Position numbers and translations under genes: made by a program. A model generated the notes under the pieces. It saw only the letters and a program-made list of their open reading frames with translations. It was not told the origin of the DNA and searched no databases. From the IMG/VR virus record IMGVR_UViG_3300029037_000169: a stretch of DNA of 64,000 nt; one strand, written 5' to 3'. This DNA is from a virus. This document shows positions 880-61,315 of this stretch, piece by piece; within the stretch, counting starts at the first letter, position 1, and the number at the start of each line of letters is the position of its first letter.

Positions 880-1038
880 CCATAACTTATACTATCATAC
901 AGTATCAAACAATATCATATGCGCTCATGTTCAATACATTCGTGTGTTTTTAAACAGTCAACAAATATCATGTAATATCATATGATGTCATGTTTTTTGC
1001 GTGTAAATTCGCGTAGTTACACGCAACACGTTTTTATC

Positions 1039-2319
1039 ATGGAAATAAAGAGGAGCATAACATTCGAGATAGAGAAAAGAAGGAAGGAGGGGGAATTGAT
1101 TACCAAGAACGTCCCCATCAGGTGCGTGGTGACATTCAACCGGAACAGGATCACGCTCTCCACGGGGCACAGGATAGACGCTAATAAGTTCATCCCGGAG
1201 AAAGGTATCGTCAAGAACGGATGCTTCAACAAGGCCGGGGAAAGCTCGTCCGAGATAAATTCCGATCTTGACGATATACGTGCCACATTGCAAAATATAT
1301 TCCGCCAATACGAGAGAGAGGGCGAGATGCCTAGATCCAACGATATCAAGGAAAAGTTCAAGGTTGCGACAGGCCGGGCGAAGGAGGAAGAGAGGAAGCC
1401 GGTATCCCTGTTCGATATCTACAAGGAGTTTATCGATACGGTAGGGAGGCAGAACGCATGGACGAAGACATCGCACTACAAACATAACTCGATCATGCAC
1501 CTTCTGGAGGAGTTCAATCCACTGATCAAGTTCGATGACCTGTCGGAGGATACCTTGCAAGACTTCGTAGAGTTCTTAAGGGAATACAAAGGTATAAGGA
1601 ATACCACGTTGAACAAGTACCTGCACTTTATAAAGCAATTCCTTTTATGGGCCGACGACAAGGGATACAACACGAGAAAGGACTATCGAAGGTTCAGCCC
1701 AAGGCTTAAAGGGGCGAACTTCGATCTGAAGAAAGTCATATACTTGACATGGGAGGAACTGATGCGTATATATAATATGTATATAAAGGAAGGGACGTTA
1801 TCCACCGTCCGTGACGTTTTCTGCTTCTGCTGCTTCACCGGCCTCCGTTACTCCGACGTATATAACTTAAGGAAGACAGATATCATTAACGGGAAGATTG
1901 ACATCGTGACACAGAAGGACAGCGACAACATACAGATCGAGTTGAACAAGTACAGCAAATCAATACTTGATAAATACGAAGACATCAAGCTCAAGAACGG
2001 GAAGGCGCTGCCGGTCTTGTCCAATCAGAAATACAACATGCATCTAAAGGATCTCGGCAAGATGGCGGAGCTGGACTCCGAGATAACCGAGGTATGGTAC
2101 GAGGGCAACAAGCGAATACAGCAGACATTTCATAAATGGGAACGGCTTACTACCCATGTCGCCAGAAAGACATTCGTCGTCAACGCCCTTATGCTAGGCA
2201 TCCCCCCTCAAGTTATCATGAGATGGACAGGGCACAACGACCTCAAGGCCATGAAACCTTACACTCATATAGTGGATAAGCTGAAGGAGGACGAGATGAG
2301 CAAGTTCGATAAGATATAA
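1039..2319 (+). CDS. int: tyrosine-type site-specific integrase (ORF opens at 982; probable start 1039 MEIKRS)
   Basis: C-terminal catalytic signature HVARKTF...RWTGHNDLKAMKPYTHI (R..H..R..Y); position adjacent to attL. Confidence 0.85.
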   Translation: MEIKRSITFEIEKRRKEGELITKNVPIRCVVTFNRNRITLSTGHRIDANKFIPEKGIVKNGCFNKAGESSSEINSDLDDIRATLQNIFRQYEREGEMPRSNDIKEKFKVATGRAKEEERKPVSLFDIYKEFIDTVGRQNAWTKTSHYKHNSIMHLLEEFNPLIKFDDLSEDTLQDFVEFLREYKGIRNTTLNKYLHFIKQFLLWADDKGYNTRKDYRRFSPRLKGANFDLKKVIYLTWEELMRIYNMYIKEGTLSTVRDVFCFCCFTGLRYSDVYNLRKTDIINGKIDIVTQKDSDNIQIELNKYSKSILDKYEDIKLKNGKALPVLSNQKYNMHLKDLGKMAELDSEITEVWYEGNKRIQQTFHKWERLTTHVARKTFVVNALMLGIPPQVIMRWTGHNDLKAMKPYTHIVDKLKEDEMSKFDKI

Positions 2320-3469: not shown

Positions 3470-3904
3470 ATGATAAAAACAAAAGATACTTTAAACAAAA
3501 CAGGGCGGCAACCTATAAGCGGCGTAAAGACAATGACAACTAGAAAGCTATTTGAACTTTTCGTTAAGAACAACACAAAAGGCAGAGATGGTATTACTCC
3601 TAATGCCAATTTCAAAAGGACATACGGCGACATTTCATTTGAGCAAGCTTTCGAGAGCTATCTTACAAATGTCAACGATTTTCTTTCTTTAAAAAAGAAG
3701 ATAGACAAATTTGAATCCTTCTTGCTAAAAGAAGGTTGCCAAAGGATTCAGAGCAATATTTCGGAAAGTAGATATTACTACTACGGAGGAATAAAATATC
3801 GCTTCAGCAGCCACGTATATCCTACGGGTTCAATGACAGATAAGATAATGGGAGTGGTTGATTTAGCGGCTGATCCAGAACTTATAAATGATGTTATTTA
3901 TTAA
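3470..3904 (+). CDS. hypothetical protein
   Basis: ORF only. Confidence 0.35.
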   Translation: MIKTKDTLNKTGRQPISGVKTMTTRKLFELFVKNNTKGRDGITPNANFKRTYGDISFEQAFESYLTNVNDFLSLKKKIDKFESFLLKEGCQRIQSNISESRYYYYGGIKYRFSSHVYPTGSMTDKIMGVVDLAADPELINDVIY

Positions 3905-4256
3905 TATGAGAAATATATCTTTGACCCTTCCAGAATTCGCCTTCGTCGAAGGCTCCGGCCACGAAAAAGGCGGAGATCCCTTATATGGGAGAAATGTCAT
4001 CTTACACACCCGCTCCGCTAGCGTGATGGAGGTATTATTAAAAGATGATGTCGTATTGGAAGAAGACGTATTGTCATTCAACTTTTCGAATACCAACATG
4101 CTTGGAGAAAACGAACGAATGACAATAGCGTTGCATTACTCGGCGACACTTGATAAAATAGCCGATAGAGATATGATAATAAAAGATATTTTAAGACAGG
4201 CCGCAATATGGTATTGCGACTACTGTGACTGGGAGGACACCAAAGATGACAGATAG
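3888..4256 (+). CDS. hypothetical protein
   Basis: ORF overlapping previous stop. Confidence 0.3.
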   Translation: MMLFINMRNISLTLPEFAFVEGSGHEKGGDPLYGRNVILHTRSASVMEVLLKDDVVLEEDVLSFNFSNTNMLGENERMTIALHYSATLDKIADRDMIIKDILRQAAIWYCDYCDWEDTKDDR

Positions 4257-5491: not shown

Positions 5492-5817
5492 TCTACTTAA
5501 TTTTATTGTATAGCAAAAAACTATATATATTTATTCCTATATCAAGTTACTAAAACGAACCCCGCAAATCAATATAAAAACATTGAAACACAAATAAATA
5601 AGATCAAATGTCTTACTTGCAAAATCTACTAGACATACATTTTTACATAATATCCATAAACATCAAAAGTTAAAAAAACCTTTTATACAGTATTTTACTC
5701 TACAAGTGTTTGATCGTATAGTAAAATACTATATATTTGCATCATCATTCAATCACGCACAAAGATACGATAAAGATTGAAATAACGAAATGGCATAAAC
5801 ATGCCAAAATAATATAA

Positions 5818-5891
5818 GGCCCTTTAGCTCAGCGGAACAGAGCGACGGTTTCCTAAACCGCAGGTCCCGGGTTTGAGTCCCGGAAGGGCCA
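5818..5891 (+). tRNA. tRNA-Arg (anticodon CCT), phage-encoded
   Basis: Cloverleaf: acceptor GGCCCTT/AAGGGCC, D arm GCTC..GAGC, anticodon loop TTCCTAA, T arm CCGGG-TTTGAGT-CCCGG. Confidence 0.75.
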
Positions 5892-8036: not shown

Positions 8037-8111
8037 GCTCCCTTAGCTCAGTTGGTCGAGAGCATCCGGCTCATAACCGGGAGGTCGCTGGTTCAAGCCC
8101 GGCAGGGAGCA
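8037..8111 (+). tRNA. tRNA-Met (anticodon CAT; could be tRNA-Ile2 if lysidinylated), phage-encoded
   Basis: Acceptor GCTCCCT/AGGGAGC, D arm GCTCAGTTGGTCGAGAGC, anticodon loop CTCATAA, T arm GCTGG-TTCAAGC-CCGGC. Confidence 0.75.
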
Positions 8112-13695: not shown

Positions 13696-13751
13696 GGATA
13701 TTAATATTAGAGTGTGTTTTTCATGGTATTAGATTTGGGTTAGAATGATTA

Positions 13752-13780
13752 TCCCCGCCGTCCGTGAGGATATGCGGGGA
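13752..13780 (+). ncRNA. hairpin with conserved loop CGTCCGTGAGGATAT (stem TCCCCGC/GCGGGGA)
   Basis: Covaries with 8181..8207. Confidence 0.45.
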
Positions 13781-13784
13781 TTTA

Positions 13785-13861
13785 GGTATCGTGGGTCTAA
13801 TGGTAAGACCACTCCGCCAAAAGACGGAGAGATGCAGATTCGAATCCTGCCGATACCACCA
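13785..13861 (+). tRNA. tRNA-like gene with encoded CCA and non-canonical 8-nt anticodon loop lacking U33
   Basis: Perfect 7-bp acceptor GGTATCG/CGATACC+A+CCA, D arm GGTC-TAATGGTAA-GACC, T loop TTCGAAT, but anticodon stem CTCCG/CGGAG encloses CCAAAAGA. Confidence 0.55.
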
Positions 13862-14045
13862 ACAACAAATAACAATCATGGATTTCGGTAACGACATTCC
13901 GGATTACGGTCCGGACGATTTTGACAATTACGATTATGAATGACATTTTTCAAAGCCTGTTATTATCCTTCGGGGTAACAACGTTCATATTCGCTATCCT
14001 AGCGATAATTTTTATTGTATTAATCTTGATAGACGACAAGTACAA

Positions 14046-14396
14046 ATGAGGAATATCGAATCACAGACCCAGCAAGCTTGCGTCAGATACTTCCGTCTCC
14101 AATACCCGAGATACGCCGGATGCTTCTTTAGCGTCCCGAACGGAGGACGGAGGGACACGGTAACCGGGGCGATACTGAAAGCGGAAGGGGCATTGGCCGG
14201 GGTCGCCGATCTGTTCCTGTCAGTCCCGAATAACGTCCATCACGGTCTGTACGTGGAAATGAAGACAAGAAAAGGCCGGCAACAGGACAGCCAGAAGGCA
14301 TTCCAGAAGGCGGTAGAGGCTCAAGGATACAGATATGAGATATGCCGATCGCTGGACGATTTCATCGCGCTTATAAAAGACTACTTGAATGGCTAA
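14046..14396 (+). CDS. VRR-NUC domain nuclease (PD-(D/E)xK)
   Basis: ADLFLSVPN...YVEMKTRKG catalytic D..E.K arrangement. Confidence 0.65.
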   Translation: MRNIESQTQQACVRYFRLQYPRYAGCFFSVPNGGRRDTVTGAILKAEGALAGVADLFLSVPNNVHHGLYVEMKTRKGRQQDSQKAFQKAVEAQGYRYEICRSLDDFIALIKDYLNG

Positions 14397-15936: not shown

Positions 15937-16828
15937 TATGGATAAAGGATTTATCATGTTATCCCGTAAATTATTTTCTCACAGAATATGGAAAGCATCC
16001 CGGACTTTTAGCGAGTGCGAAGCGTGGATAGACTTAATACAGTCAGCACGATTTGAGGCAACGCAGCTTAAGGCTAGTATCGGAGGTAGAGAAATAACAT
16101 ACGGAAGAGGACAATATCCAGCATCCATAAGTTTTCTTTCCAAAAAATGGAAATGGGACTCAGAGAAAAAGGTCCGAAATTTCTTGGACATGCTTAAAAG
16201 GGACGGAATGATAACAACAGACGCATCCCAAGGCATGAATGTGATAACTCTATGCAATTATGATTTATACAACCCTATAAATATAGACAAGGGCGAGGAT
16301 AAGGGCAAGGGTAATGGCATAGACATAGAACAAGAAATCAAGGACTTAAAGCTTTCTTTGGGCGAGCTAAGGGCAAGCCTAGGGGCAAGTGACGAAAATA
16401 AAGGGCAAGGTAAGGGCAAGAATAATAATAAAGATAATAATAATATACCCCCTACCCCCAAATCGGGAGGTGCCGTCACTTCCGTTCCGGACACGGGCGA
16501 TAACCCTGAGACAGAAAAGGAGAAAACATGGAAAGATGATTTCAGCATCTATTTGGATTTAGTCCGTAGCGCATATAAGAGCATATGCGACGATCCAAAG
16601 ATCATGGAGACTCAACAATCCTATTATCCCGGCGTAAACATAAAACTATCCCTAGAGAAGGCTTGCACAAATTTCTGGGCAACAGACGCAGGATGGAAGC
16701 ACAAGAAAAAAAGCAGGGCCAAGGAGATTGACATGAGAATGACATTGATTAACGCAATAGATAAAAACAAGGTTTATTATGGCAAGAACGAACACCGCAC
16801 AGATCTCACATACATCGTCCCCGATTGA
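15923..16828 (+). CDS. putative replication initiation / helicase-loading protein
   Basis: Sits immediately upstream of and overlapping dnaB; low-complexity K/G/N linker. Confidence 0.4.
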   Translation: MPTTDMDKGFIMLSRKLFSHRIWKASRTFSECEAWIDLIQSARFEATQLKASIGGREITYGRGQYPASISFLSKKWKWDSEKKVRNFLDMLKRDGMITTDASQGMNVITLCNYDLYNPINIDKGEDKGKGNGIDIEQEIKDLKLSLGELRASLGASDENKGQGKGKNNNKDNNNIPPTPKSGGAVTSVPDTGDNPETEKEKTWKDDFSIYLDLVRSAYKSICDDPKIMETQQSYYPGVNIKLSLEKACTNFWATDAGWKHKKKSRAKEIDMRMTLINAIDKNKVYYGKNEHRTDLTYIVPD

Positions 16829-19187
16829 CGGCAGGCTGCCTCCCCAAGCCAAGGAGATCGAGCAGATAATACTCGGGGCTTGCCTCATAGAGAGCGACGC
16901 TTTCGAGAAAATCGCCTCGGAGCTATCGGAGGTCGATTTCTACGACAAGAGGAACCAATCGGTATTCAAGGCCATATCCGGGCTATACAAGGAGAGAAAG
17001 CCCATAGACATGATGACGGTCACGCAAGCGATGCTGTCATCCGGGGAGCTTGAGAGTATTGGGGGGCCGATATACATAGCTTCCCTTACCTCCAAGATCG
17101 GGTCTTCGGCCCATATACAGGATCATGCCATGATCGTCAAGGAGCGGTCCATACAGAGGAAGGGGCTGGCTATCGCCAACGACCTTGAGAACGCCATCTA
17201 TTCCAACGAGGATATAGGGGACGTTCTTCACAAGGCCATAAACGGCTCAGAGACCCTCATGGAGGAACTTATCGGCAAGTCTAATGGCGAGCATATATCC
17301 AAGGCCCTTAAAGGCTCCATGGACGGTTTATACAAGCGTGTGGAGATGGCGAGGAAAAACATCCGATCCGGTGTTGACACGGGTCTTCACGACCTGAACA
17401 AGATCACGAACGGATGGCAGCCGGGAAACTTGGTGATAATAGCGGCTAGGCCCTCCATGGGAAAGGCGCTAAGGATGGATGCCAAGGTCTTGACACCTTC
17501 CGGATGGAAACTGAACAAGGATCTGGCGATAGGCGACCAAGTTTGCTCCGTAGACGGGACGGAATCACGTGTGACCGGCATATTCCCGCAAGGGTATGTC
17601 AAGACATACATGGTCGAGTTCTCGGACGGTCGCAAGATCGAATGCTGCGGAAGTCACCTATGGAGCGTAATATCTTCCAAGTTCAATTCCAAGGCCGAAA
17701 GGGTAGTATCTACCTTGGAGCTTATGGACTTGATAAGCAAGGAAAGATATTCCGGCAGAATAAGCATTCCTCGTTTCTCCGGGATATTCGGGGACAGGAA
17801 AGATTTCGTGATCCCACCATATCTCATGGGAGTCTTGTTAGGGGATGGGATCTTGGGCAAAGGGGTTAGCTGGTGCAAGCCAGATAAGTTTATCGCAGAC
17901 AAGATCCGAGGTATGGTTGACTACGATGTTATCGCCTCAGATGATCGATACCTAATAACCAACACGGAGAACAGGAAGGCCAATAAGTACTTGGCAGAGT
18001 TGAAGAACCTAGGATTGCTCAACGCCCATTCTTACGAGAAGTTCATTCCGGACATGTACATTGACACATGTAGGGATCAAAGAGTAGAACTGTTGAACGG
18101 TCTTCTTGACACTGATGGGGATATAGACAAGAATGGGGCTATATGTTACAACACCACGAGTGTCAAATTGGCGAGAGGCGTACAAACGCTTTGCTGGTCT
18201 TTGGGATATAAATGTTCCTTGAGAGAAAGACGCTCATTCCTTTATGGCGAGCGGAAAAGGAACAGTTTCAGGCTCGTGATCGTAGCGGACAACCCTAGGG
18301 AATGCTTCACGCTCCCAAGGAAATTCGACAGGGTGAGGATGGACCGGAGAAACAAGCCTTTGACCGTGATGTCCGTGACACCGACCAACCGCAGGGTTGA
18401 ATGCCAGTGCATATCGGTATCGCATGAGAAGGCCTTGTACATAACGGATGATTACATAGTCACCCACAATACCGCCGTGATGCTTCACTTGGCCAAATCG
18501 GCGGCAAAATCCAACACGCCCGTGGCTATATTCTCGCTTGAAATGTCCGACATAAGCTTGGCCAACAGGTTGATCCTATCCGAGTGCGACGTAGATCCGG
18601 AAAGGTTCAAGTCCGGGTATATGACAAACGAGGAGATCAAAAAGGTAGAGACGGCAGTCAACGAGCTTTGGAGGCTCCCGATCTATGTCGATGACAACCC
18701 GTGCGTTACGATGGACTACATCCGCTCACGATGCAAGATACTGAAGAAGCAAGGCAAGTGCGGGATCATCATGGCCGACTATCTCCAATTGGCGGAGAGC
18801 GGGGAACGGGAAGGAAACCGTGAGCGGGAGGTAGCCAAGATGTCAAGGACCGCCAAGATCACGGCGAAGGAGTTAAAGGTTCCCTTCTTGCTCTTATCCC
18901 AATTGAACAGGGGAAACGAGGCCAGACCGGACAAGAAACCCCTCCTATCAGATCTTAGGGAATCCGGGGCTATCGAACAAGACGCTGATATCGTAATGTT
19001 CATCCATAGGCCGGAGTATTACAAGATCGAGGTAAAGGACAAGAACGGGAACGTCGAACGCAACTATGGGGAGTTGATCGTGGCCAAAAATAGAGATGGG
19101 GCTACTGGATTAGTAAAATTCAAGCATAATGACGGTATGACCAAGTTCTACGATTACGGGAGTTATGACAAGGACATGCCATTTTAA
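16779..19187 (+). CDS. dnaB: replicative DNA helicase DnaB containing a LAGLIDADG-type intein in the P-loop
   Basis: DnaB N-domain; Walker A split ARPSMGK|[ALRMDAKVLTP...YIVTHN]|TAVMLHLA; LLGDGILGKG and LLDTDGDIDKNG endonuclease motifs; RecA-like C-terminal domain. Confidence 0.85.
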   Translation: MARTNTAQISHTSSPIDGRLPPQAKEIEQIILGACLIESDAFEKIASELSEVDFYDKRNQSVFKAISGLYKERKPIDMMTVTQAMLSSGELESIGGPIYIASLTSKIGSSAHIQDHAMIVKERSIQRKGLAIANDLENAIYSNEDIGDVLHKAINGSETLMEELIGKSNGEHISKALKGSMDGLYKRVEMARKNIRSGVDTGLHDLNKITNGWQPGNLVIIAARPSMGKALRMDAKVLTPSGWKLNKDLAIGDQVCSVDGTESRVTGIFPQGYVKTYMVEFSDGRKIECCGSHLWSVISSKFNSKAERVVSTLELMDLISKERYSGRISIPRFSGIFGDRKDFVIPPYLMGVLLGDGILGKGVSWCKPDKFIADKIRGMVDYDVIASDDRYLITNTENRKANKYLAELKNLGLLNAHSYEKFIPDMYIDTCRDQRVELLNGLLDTDGDIDKNGAICYNTTSVKLARGVQTLCWSLGYKCSLRERRSFLYGERKRNSFRLVIVADNPRECFTLPRKFDRVRMDRRNKPLTVMSVTPTNRRVECQCISVSHEKALYITDDYIVTHNTAVMLHLAKSAAKSNTPVAIFSLEMSDISLANRLILSECDVDPERFKSGYMTNEEIKKVETAVNELWRLPIYVDDNPCVTMDYIRSRCKILKKQGKCGIIMADYLQLAESGEREGNREREVAKMSRTAKITAKELKVPFLLLSQLNRGNEARPDKKPLLSDLRESGAIEQDADIVMFIHRPEYYKIEVKDKNGNVERNYGELIVAKNRDGATGLVKFKHNDGMTKFYDYGSYDKDMPF

Positions 19188-27531: not shown

Positions 27532-28005
27532 TCACTTTAGTTTATCCTGCAATATTTTCTCAAATATCTTTTTATACTCCCGAGGAGTTTTCTTGCTTTG
27601 ATATAGCGTATAAATCAAATCCAAGTATTCTTTCTCAAACAAACTACATATAAAAGTCAAATCAGGCACATTCAATGATAAGCTATGCGTGGAGGTCTTT
27701 GTATAACCATAATCTGGAACGACCGTACTATCTTCAGGAAATCTGAAGCTTTGAGTAACTCCATTGCCGTCTTTGTATGTGCCTACATCCTTACTGGCAA
27801 GAAACACATAAGATTTAGGGTCATTAGATCCAGAAGGATTTTTCCCATGCACATAATCACTAACCCCAGACCTCTTTTTCGATGTAGTGTATGTGGCTAA
27901 CACACAATCTTGCCCGTCATTATGTAAAATGATCGCATATTTTGGTTTCGTGCATATATTTGACAGCTTAAACGTGCCATATAAAACGTTTCCGGGCTTA
28001 AACAT
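27532..28005 (-). CDS. MazF/PemK-like toxin candidate (CcdB/MazF fold)
   Basis: GNVLYGTF...KPKYAIILHND...VLATYTTSKK parallels MazF GDLIWVDF...RPAVVLS...CVPCTTQSK; 8-nt overlap with upstream Panacea gene. Confidence 0.4.
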   Translation of the reverse strand: MFKPGNVLYGTFKLSNICTKPKYAIILHNDGQDCVLATYTTSKKRSGVSDYVHGKNPSGSNDPKSYVFLASKDVGTYKDGNGVTQSFRFPEDSTVVPDYGYTKTSTHSLSLNVPDLTFICSLFEKEYLDLIYTLYQSKKTPREYKKIFEKILQDKLK

Positions 28006-28591
28006 TATCGCATGACTTTAATTTACTATTAATCATCATAATCTCCATGGCACCATTATAGTTCTCCAGTTTCTCAGGATCATCCGCTATTAGTCTCTTA
28101 AAGTCTAAGCTATAATCTGATACTTTATAATCATTATCGAAAATAATATTATGCTCTTTCTTGGTAATATCCCATAACGATCCCTTTTTATGGGTCAAAT
28201 TCACCAATTCACTAGGCTTTTTATTCCCATATTCTTTTATGACACGATCTATTATGTCCATTTCGTAGTCGCTAAATTTATCATCCGAGAATGACACCTT
28301 CGGCAAAACATAAAAATGATTATCTGATCCTGAACATTTCTCCGCCTTAACATAATCAGAGAACTCCATTCCCCCGCATTTTATATAATATGTATCTGGG
28401 GCTACAGGGCCATATTGCCACGCCTTATAATCAAGCCAAGTGACAGGAACGCCATCATCCTTAACAGCCTCTTCATCTATAAGATATAGAAGCTTAATAA
28501 GCTGAGTATGGTATATTGGAGATATCCTCTCCGACAAATATACCATAAGATTGCCTATTTTATCTTTATTGACTTTTATTCCTAAACACAT
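27998..28591 (-). CDS. Panacea-domain (DUF4065/SocA-like) antitoxin
   Basis: LIKLLYLIDEE...WQYGPV motifs characteristic of DUF4065. Confidence 0.6.
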   Translation of the reverse strand: MCLGIKVNKDKIGNLMVYLSERISPIYHTQLIKLLYLIDEEAVKDDGVPVTWLDYKAWQYGPVAPDTYYIKCGGMEFSDYVKAEKCSGSDNHFYVLPKVSFSDDKFSDYEMDIIDRVIKEYGNKKPSELVNLTHKKGSLWDITKKEHNIIFDNDYKVSDYSLDFKRLIADDPEKLENYNGAMEIMMINSKLKSCDNV

Positions 28592-30634: not shown

Positions 30635-31027
30635 TTATAAAACCACTATGCTCTCCTCCTCTCTCGCCGCCTCCCACTCGGCGAAATCGCTATCCACACG
30701 GTCTTTCAACGCCTTCCTCTCGTTAAGGAACGTCTTATAAGACTCCACGTATGACAAGTCCAATATGCCTAGCTGGGCGGCGTTGTAGTCGTTCAGCTTC
30801 TTTTGCTCCACGTCCTTGTCCCATAGGGCGTTGATACAGGCCTCCAATATCTTGTTGGCAGTTAACGTGGCCCATATCCTGACCTCGTTGTAACTATAGG
30901 AGATCACGGGGGCCATATCGTCACCCATCTCCCTTGTCTCCTCTCTAACGTCCCACCGGTACAGGTAGGAACCGTCACCGTCCCGCTCTATTTTAGGCGG
31001 CATTGTGTCGCTCCATGATCGCTTCAT
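30635..31027 (-). CDS. hypothetical protein downstream of RT
   Basis: ORF overlapping RT start. Confidence 0.4.
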   Translation of the reverse strand: MKRSWSDTMPPKIERDGDGSYLYRWDVREETREMGDDMAPVISYSYNEVRIWATLTANKILEACINALWDKDVEQKKLNDYNAAQLGILDLSYVESYKTFLNERKALKDRVDSDFAEWEAAREEESIVVL

Positions 31028-32054
31028 AAAACTCTGGTTTTAAAATTTTCTTAGCTAAATGCTTGCTATCGCTATCATATATCCAGCCCAGCCAACCGGC
31101 TAGACCTGCCTTGTATTCCGTTAAGGATATATTCGGGACTTTATTCAATCTAGCCGCCGCACGACATAGATTTTGCTTAGTCCTCTTCCTTATCCGTATA
31201 TGCTCCTTATAGAAAACGAACCCCACGAAATCTATACCACGGCCGCTTTTATCCGATCTTCTCTCAGCGATCTTAAATATCTGGTAATTCCCTTTCAGCT
31301 CCAACTTCAACACGGTCAACCTATCGATAAGCCACGGAAGCAATACGTTTCTCAAGAAACACTTATCATGATGGAAAAAAGTCATGTCATCCGCATATCT
31401 GATATAATGCTTTATATCTATAATCTCCTTTATCTCGTGATCCAGATAGGCGAGATAAAGATTCGCAAGATATTGGCTAAGATAATTCCCGATCGGAACG
31501 CCGGGAGCGGAATCGATGATCTCATCCAACAACATAAGCAAGCGATCGTCCTTGATCTTCTTCCGAGCTATGCCTTTCAACACTTCATGGTCTATTGACG
31601 GATAGAATTTGCGGATATCAACCTTGAGGCAATAGGCGGATTCACGATCGGACAAAGCCCGTCTTGTCCTTTTATACGCCTCCGTTATCCCTCTTCCCTT
31701 GATACATGATGTCGTGTCAGAAGTGAATATGGAAACCCATATAGGTTCCATGACGTTCATTATAGCATGATGCAATATCCTGTCCGGGTAATAAGGAAGC
31801 TTGAATATGACCCTTTCTTTAGGCTCATAGATGATATCAGTCCGGTACTTGGAAGTCTTGAACGTGCCATCCTGCAAAGACTTTAGCAAACGGCTGAGAT
31901 TACCTTCTTTGTCCTTGTCAAACAACCTTATGCCGTAGGAATCCTTCTTCCCCCTCCGAGCCTTGATGTCTGCCAGTATCAAGTTATCCATATTCGCTAT
32001 CTTATCAAATAAATTTCCTATTCTCTTCATTGTCATCAATTTGCTTTTTATCAT
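30993..32054 (-). CDS. diversity-generating retroelement (DGR) reverse transcriptase
   Basis: YADD catalytic box (IRYADDMTFF); DGR-specific IGNYLSQ in place of QGxxxSP; ~350 aa; adjacent TR. Confidence 0.85.
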   Translation of the reverse strand: MIKSKLMTMKRIGNLFDKIANMDNLILADIKARRGKKDSYGIRLFDKDKEGNLSRLLKSLQDGTFKTSKYRTDIIYEPKERVIFKLPYYPDRILHHAIMNVMEPIWVSIFTSDTTSCIKGRGITEAYKRTRRALSDRESAYCLKVDIRKFYPSIDHEVLKGIARKKIKDDRLLMLLDEIIDSAPGVPIGNYLSQYLANLYLAYLDHEIKEIIDIKHYIRYADDMTFFHHDKCFLRNVLLPWLIDRLTVLKLELKGNYQIFKIAERRSDKSGRGIDFVGFVFYKEHIRIRKRTKQNLCRAAARLNKVPNISLTEYKAGLAGWLGWIYDSDSKHLAKKILKPEFYEAIMERHNAA

Positions 32055-32161
32055 AGGGAGTCTTCGGTTCCCCTACCAACACCCTTTATATGGGGAGACT
32101 TTTTTCGCCAAGAGGCGAGGCCACCATCCCTGTTTGTTCCCTAAATATCTTTCCCCTTTCT

Positions 32162-32697: not shown

Positions 32698-35600
32698 CTA
32701 CGCCGACGTTTTACGAAATTCGGGGAAAAAGCAAAGGCGCGAACCGAAGTGACGAAACGCAGCGGAAGGCGCATTATTCGTACCCACGTGAGCGAGGCCC
32801 GCAGCCGACCCGTCGTCCGCGCCACCGCCAACCAGCACCACCTGTAAGCGGTTGGCTTGCGTATAGGTGTAGTAATAGTCGCACCAGTAGGTAGAGCTAC
32901 TACCGCCGACCTCCGTAGCCACGATATCCCCATCTTCCCCAAGTAACATCTTCTTGGCATAACCATTGGTACGGCAGATGTTACCTTTCTTGTCATAACC
33001 TGTGTAAGATGTATCGCTGAAGTTTGACGGGTCATCGGTAGTCCATAGGATAGACAATCCGGAATCACCCGTGGTGACTTGTATGTTGGCCCCATCGGTG
33101 TATTTCCAGATATGGCCGAACGGGTTCTCTATGCCACGGTACCTGTTAGCCATCAACGTGGCGTGAGTACCACCGGAGGCGTTCTTCACGACATACGCCT
33201 TCTCTCCCGAGCCGTTCCCGAACTCGTTGGTATAGCCGCATGGGATAAGAGGATTGGCGTTGTTGAAGTTCGTCCAATCCGTCATTTGCGTCGGTCCCGG
33301 ACCTAGGCCGCCTTGGGCGAAACCGTTAGCGTCCTTCTGGGCGTTGAAAGGTTTCTGGCTGTCCAGCGTGGCGTACTCGACGGCGAATAACCAGAACAGG
33401 ATCTTGTGGGCGTTATAGGTGTACATTTCCCAGCCGCTGCCACGTTTCCTAGCGGCTTGCCGGAATTGGTCTCGGGTGAGGTTGGTGACGGGGCGGCCGA
33501 GTAGGGAACGGTAGGTATCATCCCATTCAGCGGTGTTGTCACCACCTCTAAAATTAGTTGAATTAGGATCACTTAATTTACTAGCTCCAGCCGCCGAACA
33601 TAATAAATTATCGGTTCTATACATTCTGGCTTCATATGTTGAGATATAGAACTTATCTACATGTTTATACCCAGGTAATGGAATTTCGGACAACATCTTC
33701 CTAAATTTAGTGCCATTAAAATACAATTTATACCAATGTTCAGGTATCTCTGTCATAACGGCATAATCCAAATAGCTTCCACCCCATGAAAGCTCATTAT
33801 CCAAATATTCTTTAACTCCACCATCTCTATCCAAAAGACACCTTCTCATCTTACTCTGCACCGGCAACTCCCGATGTAGTTGCATATTACCCACACGCTT
33901 CCCGTCCGGGCTTGACGATGCCATGTCCCACTCTACACCGTAGGCGTACCGCTCCTCTATATCCGGGATGTCCTCCCAAGCGGGGGTCCACTCGGTGGAG
34001 ATGTCACCATATTCAAGTTTAATCTTATGGATGGTGGAAGTTGATGTGCCAGTTTTAGGAGAACTAAATACAACCATATGTGTATTATCAGCTACTGCAT
34101 CTCCGATATTAGTAATCCATTTAAAAGTCTTACTGGCCTTCCCATTCACAAAGTCAGCCTTACTGAACTGAGCCATAGAACCTACTGCACCAGTAGAGTT
34201 ATATATAGTGAACATTTCCTTATCATCACCCAATTCTCCAAAAATAGTCAATGTTACTTGTGTTCCTTTAGATATCGGTTCAGTTAGCCAATAATCAGCG
34301 ATATTGTAATTCGAGTTACTCACCTCCTTCCCTGATCCCAGCAACAGGTTCCTGCCGTACACGGGCAGCTTGCGGTACTTGCCATCAGCCATCAGAGACT
34401 TATCCTTGTCCCCCTTGGTCTCCAGCGTTATCGACACGTCCGGATCTTCGTTTTGGGCCTTGTCCGGCGTTATGGTTATCTGGCCGTTAGACGGGGTGGA
34501 TGTGACAACGGGCTTTAACTTATTAACGTCCGTCCTTAGACCGGTGACCAGATTCCGGATATCCGTATCGTCGTAATTATCCAATCCATCCAACTTACCC
34601 TTATCTTCGTCAGTATAATTATTGTCCGTATGGACGTAATTAGCGTCCTTTACGATGTGATCGTCATTTGTTAATTGGGATGTCTTGGTTGGGATCAAAG
34701 CCGTTATCTCCGCACGCAAGTCATTGAGAAGACCGGTTAGGGTTTCCTTATCAGTAATACCCTGCAAAAAAAGCTCGATCTCATGGAAGGTATCTATAGC
34801 GTCGCTCGCTCCATCACCCAATAACGTGTCGATATCCGCCTTGATAGAGGCGATCTCACTCCTGACCCATTCATCATCATAGTTGGATAAGCCGTTGATC
34901 TTAGATAACAGCTCATCCGTAAGGTCGTTTGTGCTAAGTCCCTTCCCTTTGATCTTCTCGACAAACCTATCGTCAATCTGTCCGGACGTGTAATAACCTG
35001 ACAAGATACTCGTGACCTCCGCAAGTATTTGTTTTTTCAAATCCAGCAACACTCCGGCCATATCCTTATCCTCTGTCATACCGGACAAGAACTCCACCAC
35101 CTCCTGCCATCTGTTGATGATATTGTCCGCGTCCGGATCTCCCGTTATAAACGTGGACAGATCGGAAGCAACTTTCCTTATGGCCGTGTCAAGATCCCCC
35201 TCTACCTCCTTCGCCCTGCTGATCTCGGAGGTTAAAGCCTCTCTTAACGCCGTGTCATCGTAATTACTCAATCCGTCGAGCTTTTTCAAAAGAGCGTCCG
35301 TCAAGTTGTTATCCGTATGCGTGTAATCGGCATCGGTTACGATATTATCCGGGAGAATGGGTATCCCTAACTCCTCTAGGGACTTATCCCCGACCAACTC
35401 AACCCCGTTGATCCGTGGTTTATTGGTCATACTTTCATAATCTCCGGTCCCTACGGCAGGAACGGAGATATCTCCCGTTAGCCTTACCGTTGTCACCTTG
35501 ACGCTGCCACATCCCGTATCTCCACCTACGGAGCACGACCGTGGGATAAGACGGAACGCATCGCAAGCGTCTACGGTGTACATGCCCTCCTTCCCTTTGT

Positions 35601-35823
35601 TCTCGATAAGAGTCAGCGTATAGACACCGTTATAATCTTGGTCTTTGCCTAGGTAGGTGAATCGTATCACGTTATCCCGGAAGTGGAGGTCTTTTACCTC
35701 CATCTTCCTGTAACCATTGGTCATGAAGACGCTAATGTTCTTGCCATCCAAAGACTCGGGCTTACCGTCCCGGAAGATGGTCCATTCTATATTGATGTCG
35801 TTTCCTATGCGAATAGCTTCCAT
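32698..35823 (-). CDS. DGR target: tail fibre / receptor-binding protein with C-terminal variable region
   Basis: 1041 aa, fibre-like, VR at C-terminus, sits in tail-fibre cluster. Confidence 0.75.
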   Translation of the reverse strand: MEAIRIGNDINIEWTIFRDGKPESLDGKNISVFMTNGYRKMEVKDLHFRDNVIRFTYLGKDQDYNGVYTLTLIENKGKEGMYTVDACDAFRLIPRSCSVGGDTGCGSVKVTTVRLTGDISVPAVGTGDYESMTNKPRINGVELVGDKSLEELGIPILPDNIVTDADYTHTDNNLTDALLKKLDGLSNYDDTALREALTSEISRAKEVEGDLDTAIRKVASDLSTFITGDPDADNIINRWQEVVEFLSGMTEDKDMAGVLLDLKKQILAEVTSILSGYYTSGQIDDRFVEKIKGKGLSTNDLTDELLSKINGLSNYDDEWVRSEIASIKADIDTLLGDGASDAIDTFHEIELFLQGITDKETLTGLLNDLRAEITALIPTKTSQLTNDDHIVKDANYVHTDNNYTDEDKGKLDGLDNYDDTDIRNLVTGLRTDVNKLKPVVTSTPSNGQITITPDKAQNEDPDVSITLETKGDKDKSLMADGKYRKLPVYGRNLLLGSGKEVSNSNYNIADYWLTEPISKGTQVTLTIFGELGDDKEMFTIYNSTGAVGSMAQFSKADFVNGKASKTFKWITNIGDAVADNTHMVVFSSPKTGTSTSTIHKIKLEYGDISTEWTPAWEDIPDIEERYAYGVEWDMASSSPDGKRVGNMQLHRELPVQSKMRRCLLDRDGGVKEYLDNELSWGGSYLDYAVMTEIPEHWYKLYFNGTKFRKMLSEIPLPGYKHVDKFYISTYEARMYRTDNLLCSAAGASKLSDPNSTNFRGGDNTAEWDDTYRSLLGRPVTNLTRDQFRQAARKRGSGWEMYTYNAHKILFWLFAVEYATLDSQKPFNAQKDANGFAQGGLGPGPTQMTDWTNFNNANPLIPCGYTNEFGNGSGEKAYVVKNASGGTHATLMANRYRGIENPFGHIWKYTDGANIQVTTGDSGLSILWTTDDPSNFSDTSYTGYDKKGNICRTNGYAKKMLLGEDGDIVATEVGGSSSTYWCDYYYTYTQANRLQVVLVGGGADDGSAAGLAHVGTNNAPSAAFRHFGSRLCFFPEFRKTSA
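32727..32843 (-). repeat. DGR variable repeat (VR) at 3' end of target gene
   Basis: See TR; lies within last ~48 codons of 32698..35823. Confidence 0.85.
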
Positions 35824-60676: not shown

Positions 60677-60918
60677 ATTTTCGTAACTTTAAGTTACGCA
60701 CCTGTCCCGCAAATATAATGAATAATATACATGACGGCTACACTGTATCCATAAAATATGTTATTGATCATAATTGGGAGTTGAGAAGGAAAAACGTTAT
60801 ATTTGTCACGATGGAGAATTAAGACATCAAAAATCCTATAAAAAAACGCCTTTTACGTGTATTTTTACGTGTAACAACAAAAATAGCCTTGACAATCAGT
60901 AAATTACCAAGGCTATTG

Positions 60919-60933
60919 TGGAGATGGAGAGAT
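60919..60933. repeat. right prophage junction (att core) = 3' terminal 15 nt of ssrA
   Basis: Identical to 865..879. Confidence 0.65.
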
Positions 60934-61315
60934 TCGAACTCTCGTCCAAACGAGGAATTAATTTGCTTTCTACATGTTTATCTTCGCCTTCATTGTCGGG
61001 GAAGAGCAAGACCGAAGCCACCCACTCATCCCTTATCCTCTAAAGTTTCGCCTGAGACCCGAGGCTTATCTCAAACTATCTCCGATATTGCTGCACCACC
61101 TGATCGGAACGCTTCGGAGCCACAGCATCCGGGTGATGTCACGTCCCCGCAACTTTTGCAGGGATTAAGCTTGAATCTACTATACTTCGATTAAGCAGCG
61201 AGAGCGTAATTATTTTCGCCAGTTAATTGTTCGTTGTCTGAGATTTAAGTGCAAGCCAACCACGCACTACATGCTTACAAACCACTTCTACCCGCTGTCA
61301 AAACCGGTCATCCCC
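60919..61315 (-). ncRNA. ssrA: tmRNA (ssrA) with tag peptide GENNYALAA
   Basis: 5' GGGGATGACCGGTTTTGACAGCGGG; tag ORF GGCGAAAATAATTACGCTCTCGCTGCTTAA (61191..61220, minus); 3' tRNA-like GAGAGTTCGAATCTCTCCATCTCCA. Confidence 0.85.

Follow-up and report, generated by a model that had tools for sequence, protein, structure and literature searches.

What does a phage encode in a gene that has the shape of a transfer RNA (tRNA) and lacks a usable anticodon loop? This question is raised by positions 13785-13861 of a 64,000-nucleotide (nt) stretch of the virus record IMGVR_UViG_3300029037_000169 (hereinafter, the window, taken at its full length), which holds a Bacteroides prophage of ~60 kb. A preliminary description of the gene, made from the letters of the DNA, had considered a non-decoding tRNA-like RNA, a frameshift or suppressor tRNA, and a decaying pseudogene. 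We favor, with moderate confidence, the reading that the gene specifies a non-decoding tRNA-shaped small RNA (sRNA), one allele in a set of interchangeable cassettes of temperate Bacteroides phages, in which the tRNA frame would serve for processing and the arm at the anticodon position would be the functional part.

Two programs recognize the gene as tRNA-like. ARAGORN reports a 77-nt "tRNA-???" at 13785-13861 (plus strand), with an anticodon (aaaa) at position 35, and the Rfam tRNA model (RF00005) matches positions 13785-13858 with 47.5 bits (gathering score 29; E = 4.8e-7 over the whole window), compared with 63-66 bits for the two canonical tRNAs of the window. The minimum free energy (MFE) fold is a cloverleaf of -26 kcal/mol (z = -3.4 relative to shuffled sequences), with the following parts:

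13785-13861, plus strand: tRNA-shaped RNA gene (cassette type A, allele A1), consisting of a 74-nt body (13785-13858) and an encoded CCA (13859-13861)
13785-13791 (GGTATCG) paired with 13851-13857 (CGATACC), plus strand: acceptor stem, perfect 7 base pairs (bp); discriminator A at 13858
13794-13810, plus strand: D-like arm GGTC-TAATGGTAA-GACC (Rfam alignment and MFE fold)
13812-13829, plus strand: anticodon-like arm, with the stem CTCCG (13812-13816) / CGGAG (13825-13829) and the loop at 13817-13824
13834-13850, plus strand: T arm GCAGA-TTCGAAT-CCTGC, with an A.C mismatch at the equivalent of 53:61, the innermost pair of the T stem

Much of the anatomy given in the preliminary description was recovered. 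The perfect 7-bp acceptor stem is present in the fold and in the ARAGORN drawing, and the ends of the gene were placed exactly; ARAGORN and Rfam also agree on the 5-bp CTCCG/CGGAG stem and on the 8-nt loop CCAAAAGA at 13817-13824, which has C rather than U at the equivalent of position 33. The Rfam alignment requires one extra base in this loop. A canonical 7-nt loop alignment, named beforehand as an outcome that would refute the description, was not found with ARAGORN, with introns allowed and the score threshold relaxed (again "tRNA-???", aaaa), or with Rfam. The arm can alternatively be read as an AAAA tetraloop closed by a C-G pair, together with a C/A 1x1 internal loop.

The other two arms depart from the tRNA norm more than had been stated. 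The D arm, previously taken to be canonical, has U instead of the near-universal A at the equivalent of position 14 in the Rfam alignment, and in the MFE fold this U can pair with the last base of the D loop, producing a 5-bp stem and a 7-nt loop; the GG that contacts the T loop is present. The 17-mer GGTCTAATGGTAAGACC also forms, in another register, the D arm of a canonical phage tRNA-Gly(UCC) (L079). For the T arm, the claim of a canonical structure holds for the TTCGAAT loop and fails for the stem, where Rfam marks the innermost pair (53:61) with a "v", A.C being found where G-C is expected. The identical 17-nt T arm is present in L088 and L091 as well as in otherwise canonical phage tRNA-Met and tRNA-Pro genes (L084, L085), so the A.C pair is a tolerated variant. 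The core positions A14 (with U8) and G53-C61 of elongator tRNAs are accordingly both altered, which is a weak criterion given the occurrence of A.C in canonical tRNAs.

Comparison with homologs, also suggested beforehand, indicates that these oddities are maintained. The window allele, A1, has an identical copy in the metagenome contig L173, and the only other type A allele found, A2, occurs in two viral contigs (L033/L078 and L060/L081) and in a 336-kb metagenome contig (L174); type A is rare. The two alleles differ at six positions, five of them in the RNA body, and all five lie in stems and keep the pairing. In the acceptor stem, G7-C67 is replaced by A7-U67, and in the anticodon-like stem, U29-A44 is replaced by C-G, both changes being doubly compensated, and C30-G43 by U.G; the 8-nt loop and every other unpaired base are identical. 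In a simulation, two doubly compensated pairs with zero new mismatches resulted from five random transitions with P ~7e-4. The whole cloverleaf, the odd arm included, appears to be under selection, and the type A RNA is apparently not a decaying pseudogene because the A2 differences preserve pairing with two double compensations. The earlier leaning against simple decay was, then, well placed, and the comparison does not reveal a point-mutated standard tRNA, given that the 8-nt loop is kept exactly and the stems change with compensation.

The site occupied by this gene in related phages is filled by many different RNAs. We gathered 76 IMG/VR loci via the VRR-NUC resolvase protein encoded nearby, 39 of which have 98-100% identical resolvase genes and flanks, and a second set of 80 loci via another neighboring gene, which adds cassette types and diverged copies. 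Among the 39 loci with near-identical flanks, the slot is always occupied (39/39) and contains at least nine unrelated tRNA-shaped cassettes; cassette lengths range from 70 to 205 nt:

Type A (the type of the window): 2 loci of 39
Type B: 6 loci of 39
Type C: 15 loci of 39
Type D: 8 loci of 39
Type E: 1 locus of 39
Type F: 3 loci of 39
Type G: 1 locus of 39
Type M: 1 locus of 39
Type N, linked to an HNH endonuclease gene: 2 loci of 39

In every cassette fold, the acceptor stem has 7 bp, the T arm carries a TTCGA-like loop and the discriminator is a single nucleotide, usually A. The region between the acceptor and T-arm parts ranges from ~35 to 150 nt. The loop at the anticodon position consists of 6 nt in L040, 8 nt in type A and 12 nt in type C; in other cassettes, the anticodon arm is replaced by a long helix with several hairpins, an insert of 60-150 nt. 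ARAGORN never called a canonical tRNA in the slot across ~120 related loci, and in the multi-locus search types B, C and D did not reach E <= 1 with the Rfam tRNA model. Judging by this geometry, none of the slot cassettes seems able to decode. The suggestion of a non-decoding tRNA-like RNA is thus supported, with the addition that the gene is one allele among interchangeable tRNA-shaped cassettes at a single locus. Identical cassettes recur on many independent contigs. A loose "acceptor plus T arm" finder, which produced 13 matches in the window compared with ~11 in shuffled sequences, was applied within the slot only.

The closest deposited genome, Bacteroides phage BF1-TP2, has in its slot the same hairpin and the same small open reading frame (ORF) as the window, with a different RNA of ~117 nt between them. 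Besides an acceptor stem of 7 bp and a T arm, this cassette has a D arm of the Leu type and, at the place of the anticodon loop, ~23 additional bases; it matches the Rfam tRNA model with 39.7 bits at 3829-3944 and is not called by ARAGORN. The annotated gene gp8 of BF1-TP2 (L001, PQ571263.1, 3787-3951), a "hypothetical protein", covers the cassette and is probably a mis-annotation. The window ORF at 13764-13943 is an artifact of the same kind, namely, the small acidic ORF extended upstream across the RNA gene.

Conservation of structure extends beyond type A. In type C, three helices have 97% of cells paired, compared with 39-52% in slid controls, and each of the three contains one compensatory pair; the middle of this type is weak in RNAalifold, and the explicitly tested structure was used instead. 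The 12-nt loop of type C, GGAGUGCGCA(U/C)GA, has one variable position, plus a 2-nt deletion in one copy. Compensatory pairs are also present in the M-type and I-type inserts, and acceptor pairing is perfect in every cassette type although the sequences are wholly different.

Several peculiarities of individual cassettes were observed in the course of this comparison. The enlarged loops of the B and C cassettes, which are otherwise unrelated, each contain a palindrome (in C, UGCGCA or GUGCGCAC; in B, GGUGCGCACC), and such self-complementary loops could form kissing dimers or, on the DNA, constitute a protein-binding or restriction-type site. Some relatives carry two tandem tRNA-shaped RNAs. 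In L126, cassettes are found at two offsets, and in L088 (minus strand) the cassette is closely followed by a second, very short RNA, AGGACAT...ATGGGTTCGAATCCCAT ATGTCCT, with almost no anticodon arm.

Cassettes of different types also share parts. The E, G and M cassettes have an identical frame (acceptor, D arm and T arm; 100% identity between G and M) around unrelated inserts. The reverse is seen as well: the G insert is 85% identical between L035 and L088, where the acceptor strands are only ~40% identical, and the M insert is 88% identical between L010 and L163, with 5/7 acceptor pairs changed on both sides. In L088, the acceptor stem and T arm of the window surround a G-like insert of ~100 nt. 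The inserts of L088 and L035 include the hairpin motifs CGC-ATAAGA-CG and CGC-AAAAGA-CG, respectively, which resemble CGC-CAAAAGA-CG of the window, and the G-type insert holds a stretch resembling the type A anticodon arm and the start of its T arm. Frame and insert apparently behave as separate modules that reassort independently.

A likely vehicle for the exchange of cassettes is found in the slot itself. In L022 and L013, a complete cassette N is followed by an HNH endonuclease gene and then by the last 17 nt of a D-type cassette. The ORF, homing-endonuclease-like and 123 amino acids (aa) long, lies inside the slot (L022 2427-2798; also in L013) and is a likely driver of cassette exchange because it is placed between the complete N cassette and the D-type remnant.

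Other accounts of the variable middles were rejected. The cassettes are not one tRNA with different introns, given that E, G and M share the frame and have nothing in common between the D arm and the T arm. The 4-nt and 9-nt "introns" that ARAGORN places in types C and J were treated as artifacts because they were seen under relaxed settings only. A ribozyme or intron in the long inserts was likewise discarded after an Rfam search of 11 loci, which gave only weak matches to tRNA, transfer-messenger RNA (tmRNA) and FopS/GibS.

The encoded CCA, noted in the preliminary description, is real, and its value as a sign of function did not survive the comparison. The sixth difference between A1 and A2 changes CCA to CUA, the two canonical tRNA genes of the window end with A-CTA and A-CGT, without an encoded CCA, and nearly all cassettes of the second locus set end with A-CAA, A-CGA or A-CAT. 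Several other cassette types of the 39-locus set share the 3' flank CCAACAACAAATAAC with type A. The CCA is incidental rather than a selected feature because A2 has CTA, and canonical phage tRNAs and other cassettes also differ at this place.

The immediate surroundings of the slot bear on how the RNA might be made. The following features flank the gene:

13714-13784, plus strand: FopS/GibS-like element, with a 5' seed region, a hairpin at 13751-13781 and a 3-nt spacer TTA
13878-13943, plus strand: 21-aa acidic peptide MDFGNDIPDYGPDDFDNYDYE (by translation), beginning 16 nt after the CCA and conserved next to all cassette types
13936-14049, plus strand: 37-aa hydrophobic single-helix peptide MNDIFQSLLLSFGVTTFIFAILAIIFIVLILIDDKYK, overlapping the stop of the acidic peptide and the start of the VRR-NUC gene
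14046-14396, plus strand: VRR-NUC resolvase-like gene (Pfam, PHROGs)

The upstream hairpin (ATCCCCGC...GCGGGGAT, 13751-13781) has no U tract, is not called as an intrinsic terminator and lies 3 nt before the RNA gene. The element to which it belongs scores 34.2 bits against RF04319, below the gathering score of 56; its first 40 nt (13714-13753) are almost identical to the FopS/GibS seed consensus, and it is conserved 5' of differing cassettes in the 39-locus set. The likeness to FopS/GibS (RF04319, RF04182) is limited to this upstream element, where the 5' seed agrees nearly base for base: chromosomal FopS/GibS end in a terminal hairpin and a U7 tail, whereas the phage copy has another hairpin, has no U tract and runs into the tRNA-shaped RNA. 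The paper describing FopS records a copy in a Bacteroides phage and reports that chromosomal FopS sRNAs, whose family controls polysaccharide-utilization transporters, repress SusC-like transporters (PMC11697453). Because of this repression by the chromosomal sRNAs, the direct coupling of the cassettes to a FopS-like sRNA suggests that prophages may also tap the host polysaccharide-utilization network (PMC11697453). The canonical tRNA-Met of the window, at 8037, is set in a similar manner, with a hairpin, AAAC and then the tRNA; a hairpin followed by a tRNA is this phage's way of placing tRNA-type genes in early transcripts.

We propose the following course of events. The RNA would be transcribed within the early rightward polycistronic transcript, in which the hairpin devoid of a U tract directly precedes it and a short A-rich leader comes next. 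The acceptor stem and T arm, together with the D arm, would make it a substrate of host tRNA maturation: its 5' end would be made by RNase P at G13785 and its 3' end by a nuclease that trims back to A13858, with the CCA either kept or added. Three products would result, namely, a FopS-like RNA with a protective 3' hairpin, a stable tRNA-shaped RNA, and a downstream messenger RNA (mRNA) with an A-rich leader. The tRNA frame would provide processing and stability, as in the engineered "tRNA scaffold", and the arm at the anticodon position would be the functional, fast-changing part, which in the window allele would be a 5-bp stem presenting CCAAAAGA. Our guess is that the variable arm would bind a factor of the host or of a rival phage as a counter-defense decoy or inhibitor, because the locus resembles an arms-race hot spot, with many alleles and endonuclease-linked replacement, in the early region. 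A non-decoding RNA is the best supported reading because the members share what RNase P, the 3' enzymes and the CCA-adding enzyme recognize and differ in the decoding arm. RNase P is known to mature phage RNAs other than tRNAs, such as the C4 RNA of P1/P7 (PMC11143913), and structured RNAs put in place of the tRNA anticodon arm produce stable, correctly processed chimeras (PMC3401473).

Several points weigh against this proposal. Transcription of the RNA, its cutting by RNase P and a 3' nuclease, and its stability are read from the anatomy of the locus, and the target, above all, is a matter of inference. Type A is known from two alleles only, so that the argument for its selection hangs on five substitutions. 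No protein partner was found among the main prophage ORFs with Pfam, PHROGs and PADLOC, and none of those scanned encodes Ro60/TROVE, RtcB, a CCA-adding enzyme, an RNA ligase or an anticodon nuclease. Antisense action on the phage's own genes was tried and rejected, the longest complementarity of eight cassettes to their own loci being no greater than the shuffled mean. No defense system linked to the locus was found, counter-defense being guessed from the behavior of the locus. Endonuclease-driven turnover could yield allelic diversity without diversifying selection. Finally, type A alone might act on the ribosome, as it is the most tRNA-like member (47.5 bits).

A different account of the same anatomy is that the tRNA shape is only punctuation, that is, a cut signal that sets where the FopS-like RNA ends and where the downstream mRNA begins, the excised RNA being functionless. 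We consider this unlikely, albeit the most serious of the alternatives: the acceptor/T-arm minihelix, the part that RNase P needs, is alone common to all cassettes, the upstream hairpin without a U tract abuts the 5' end of the RNA, and the downstream leader begins directly after its 3' end. Non-aminoacylated tRNA-shaped processing handles within longer transcripts are exemplified by MALAT1/mascRNA and the tRNA-miRNA units of MHV68. The t-elements of plant mitochondria, tRNA-shaped modules that recruit RNase P or RNase Z to define the ends of neighboring RNAs, are an established precedent (PMC1920247). In these systems, however, the handle is fairly uniform, whereas the cassette middles, being conserved by type, compensated and exchanged among frames, point to a role of their own. 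The middles do not drift freely, with loops conserved and stems compensated in A, C, M and I; inserts are kept at 85-88% identity while frames are exchanged, the opposite of what a role of the frame alone predicts; and many unrelated alleles sit within the 98-100% identical flanks. The same compensatory evolution (P ~7e-4) speaks against a functionless sequence, be it a tRNA gene in decay or debris left by recombination where a tRNA once stood, a reading that we regard as very unlikely, in agreement with the disfavoring of the pseudogene proposed earlier. Decay would account for the departures from the near-invariant tRNA features (U33, A14, G53-C61 and loop size), for the mosaic look of cassettes such as the G-type insert with its A-like anticodon arm and T-arm start, and for the homing-endonuclease traffic in the slot; it is contradicted by the acceptor pairing, perfect across types even where 5/7 pairs differ between L010 and L163, by the identical cassettes on many independent contigs, and by the filled slot in 39/39 close relatives.

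Still less room is left for a working tRNA with unusual decoding, which would read a UUUU quadruplet, causing a +1 frameshift, or a UUU/CUU triplet with an enlarged loop; we hold it to be highly improbable. Type A is indeed the cassette most similar to tRNA, with an intact T loop, GG in the D loop, A73 and a structure apparently under selection. Natural and mutant tRNAs with 8-nt loops are known as one-base insertions into recognizable tRNAs that keep U33 and decode. The window RNA shares the cloverleaf and the eight-membered loop with such tRNAs, for example, yeast mitochondrial tRNA-Thr1 and the suf-type +1 suppressors (PMC3113583 and PMC3617221, respectively), but it lacks U33, has U at position 14 in place of A, has no 7-nt alignment and is allelic with arm-less RNAs. 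No canonical parent tRNA was found: exact-word scans gave copies of type A, the tRNA-Gly that shares the D-arm 17-mer, and one unrelated match. The neighboring genes are identical in relatives that carry non-decoding alleles, and the phage proteome cannot depend on decoding by type A because near-identical phages have, in its place, alleles without any anticodon arm. Furthermore, an efficient quadruplet reader would hit 38 in-frame UUU-U sites in the 19 largest ORFs of the phage. The frameshift or suppressor tRNA considered in the preliminary description is unlikely on all three counts, that is, the missing U33, the replacing alleles without an anticodon and the in-frame sites. The most distant alternative, extremely unlikely in our estimate, is membership in the skipping-rope RNA family (RF02924), a cloverleaf-like four-way junction associated with DUF3800. 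This model matches 13784-13858 with 30.2 bits (E = 3.3e-5 in a 400-nt search) and shares the GAGAUGC junction sequence, but the match falls short of the family's gathering score (36.7) and, over this stretch, is far outscored by the tRNA model. Skipping-rope RNAs have a Rho-independent terminator at the 3' end and are associated with DUF3800-type genes (PMC5737381), whereas no terminator-like site is seen 3' of the window RNA, and Pfam scans of 30 window ORFs and 2 L010 ORFs gave no DUF3800 match; the other cassette types do not match the model.

The non-decoding, tRNA-framed RNA that we favor can be placed in a broader scheme, which we put forward tentatively, as possible rather than probable. 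Under this scheme, the cassettes would constitute a natural "tRNA scaffold" system in temperate Bacteroides phages, whereby the frame hijacks host maturation and a swappable effector arm, replaced with the aid of homing endonucleases, acts against host immunity or rivals, for example, as a decoy that diverts RNA-binding defense proteins, whether tRNA-directed or other, the window RNA being the minimal member. In the engineered tRNA scaffold of Ponchon and Dardel (PMC3401473), the anticodon arm is swapped out and the remaining arms give processing and nuclease protection. The long cassettes (D, E, F, G, M, P and others) share this topology, with frames and inserts exchanged independently. The tRNA scaffold is a laboratory design, whereas the cassettes are natural, and processing and stability would follow from their shape; the window allele has only a short hairpin with an 8-nt loop. 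We found no description of a natural phage counterpart of the tRNA scaffold.

Other known RNAs resemble the cassettes in part. In tmRNA (RF00023), which is matured by RNase P (PMC11143913), the acceptor and T arm are likewise present, and where a tRNA has its anticodon arm, a long helix connects to an inserted domain. The best match of any cassette to the tmRNA model is that of cassette K (L058), which aligns with its ends at 28.7 bits (gathering score 47). Type A, however, has U3-A70 in place of the G3.U70 pair of tmRNA, and type C does not conserve that pair; at 70-205 nt, the cassettes are shorter than the host tmRNA (~400 nt), and ARAGORN called no tmRNA or tag reading frame in any slot. 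Among phage RNAs, "species 1 and 2" of T4 (rnaC/rnaD) are non-decoding RNAs encoded among tRNA genes; they have tRNA-like ends and are cut by RNase P. These stable RNAs of T-even phages are similar to the cassettes in being non-decoding phage RNAs and belong to another phage group with another host; to our knowledge, they are not hypervariable cassettes at a fixed slot. In the bacterial Y RNA-like YrlA, whose gene lies near one for Ro60/TROVE, a tRNA-like module is joined to a helix that binds Ro60 (Rsr) and is made by pairing of the 5' and 3' ends of the RNA. A relationship with YrlA was rejected, as the cassette ends form an acceptor stem, which is a different topology, and Pfam detected no TROVE domain in 30 window ORFs.

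Direct searches for the cassettes yielded little. The exact 27-mer of the 5' half of the RNA had 0 matches in IMG/VR because the relatives differ at position 7, and the D-arm 21-mer had 0 matches in the genome collection. The 19-mer of the upstream hairpin had 27 matches in the genome collection, most of them in unrelated taxa; the four examined from Bacteroidota lineages are terminator-like hairpins without a cassette, and no host range was drawn from them. BLAST of the C- and M-type cassettes against deposited phages retrieved only BF1-TP2 and one unannotated record that matches the shared D-arm region. The literature searched does not describe tRNA-shaped cassettes, or tRNAs with 8-nt loops, from Bacteroides phages, and Rfam has no model for the cassette RNAs beyond weak tRNA matches.

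Non-coding RNAs of a tRNA-like kind are known already; the novelty here lies in a population of cassettes that share a tRNA frame and can replace one another. The tmRNA, Y-like RNAs and the T4 stable RNAs are non-decoding, though they are not known as interchangeable alleles at one phage locus. The family that we propose, tRNA-frame cassette RNAs of Bacteroides phages, would be recognized by a fixed slot behind a hairpin lacking a U tract, an acceptor stem of 7 bp with a T arm and a single discriminator base, a non-decoding arm at the anticodon position, and allelism with unrelated cassettes between near-identical flanks; the window RNA shows all of these features and has the acceptor stem and T arm that surround the long insert of L088. 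The cassette genes are currently invisible or mis-annotated, being mostly missed by ARAGORN, having no Rfam model and, in BF1-TP2, appearing as a "hypothetical protein". Calls of "tRNA-???" in gut phages should not be counted as tRNAs or as evidence of recoding. If the scaffold scheme is correct, a trick in wide use for expressing RNA would have a counterpart in nature, and the cassettes would be a new class of phage sRNAs in dominant human-gut bacteria and would likely represent a new layer of phage-host or phage-phage conflict that is borne by RNA rather than protein.

The prophage that carries the gene lies between a host peptidase gene followed by the integrase, on one side, and the host tmRNA gene, on the other:

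982-2319, plus strand: tyrosine integrase, left prophage boundary
60916-61315 (ARAGORN, 60918-61315), minus strand: host tmRNA gene with the tag GENNYALAA (ARAGORN and Rfam), right boundary

Because it is bounded by these two genes, the prophage appears to be integrated at ssrA. ARAGORN reports four genes in the window, namely, tRNA-Arg(cct) at 5818, tRNA-Met(cat) at 8037, the tmRNA on the minus strand, and the "tRNA-???" at 13785-13861. The tRNA-shaped gene is located in the rightward early region, downstream of genes for Erf, NinB, a DUF4494 protein and a lipoprotein and upstream of those for the VRR-NUC resolvase-like protein, a DnaD-like loader and DnaB (Pfam, PHROGs). The tRNA-Arg(cct) gene (5818-5891, plus strand) has a good Bacteroides-type -7 box, TATATTTG, at 5731-5738, ~80 nt upstream, and may be transcribed on its own because of it; an equally good -7 box was not seen before the FopS-like element.

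The acidic peptide encoded next to the cassettes is similar among relatives (MDFGYDMPDDDPDYFDDFDFDN in L040, MDFGEDMIFEESEEFDDFNFDD in L061). The start of MDFGNDIPDYGPDDFDNYDYE resembles the C-terminal tail of bacterial SSB (...MDFDDDIPF in E. coli), and the peptide may mimic this tail and compete for the proteins that bind SSB. Further along the early region, the DnaB-like helicase (16779-19187, plus strand; 802 aa) probably contains an intein because a LAGLIDADG domain splits its halves.

Two other regions of the prophage deserve mention. A reverse transcriptase gene (RVT_1; 30993-32122, minus strand), whose 5' end carries an RT-17 RNA motif (RF03020, 41.7 bits), adjoins a 1041-aa ORF without a family match (32698-35823, minus strand), and the two together look like a diversity-generating retroelement with a tail-fiber-type target. 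Within 27532-28591, a Panacea-domain (SocA-like) antitoxin gene (27998-28591, minus strand) overlaps a gene for a 157-aa partner that has zero matches in Pfam, PHROGs and PADLOC. The two genes are a candidate toxin-antitoxin pair, and a link to tRNA-end-modifying toxins is only a thought.

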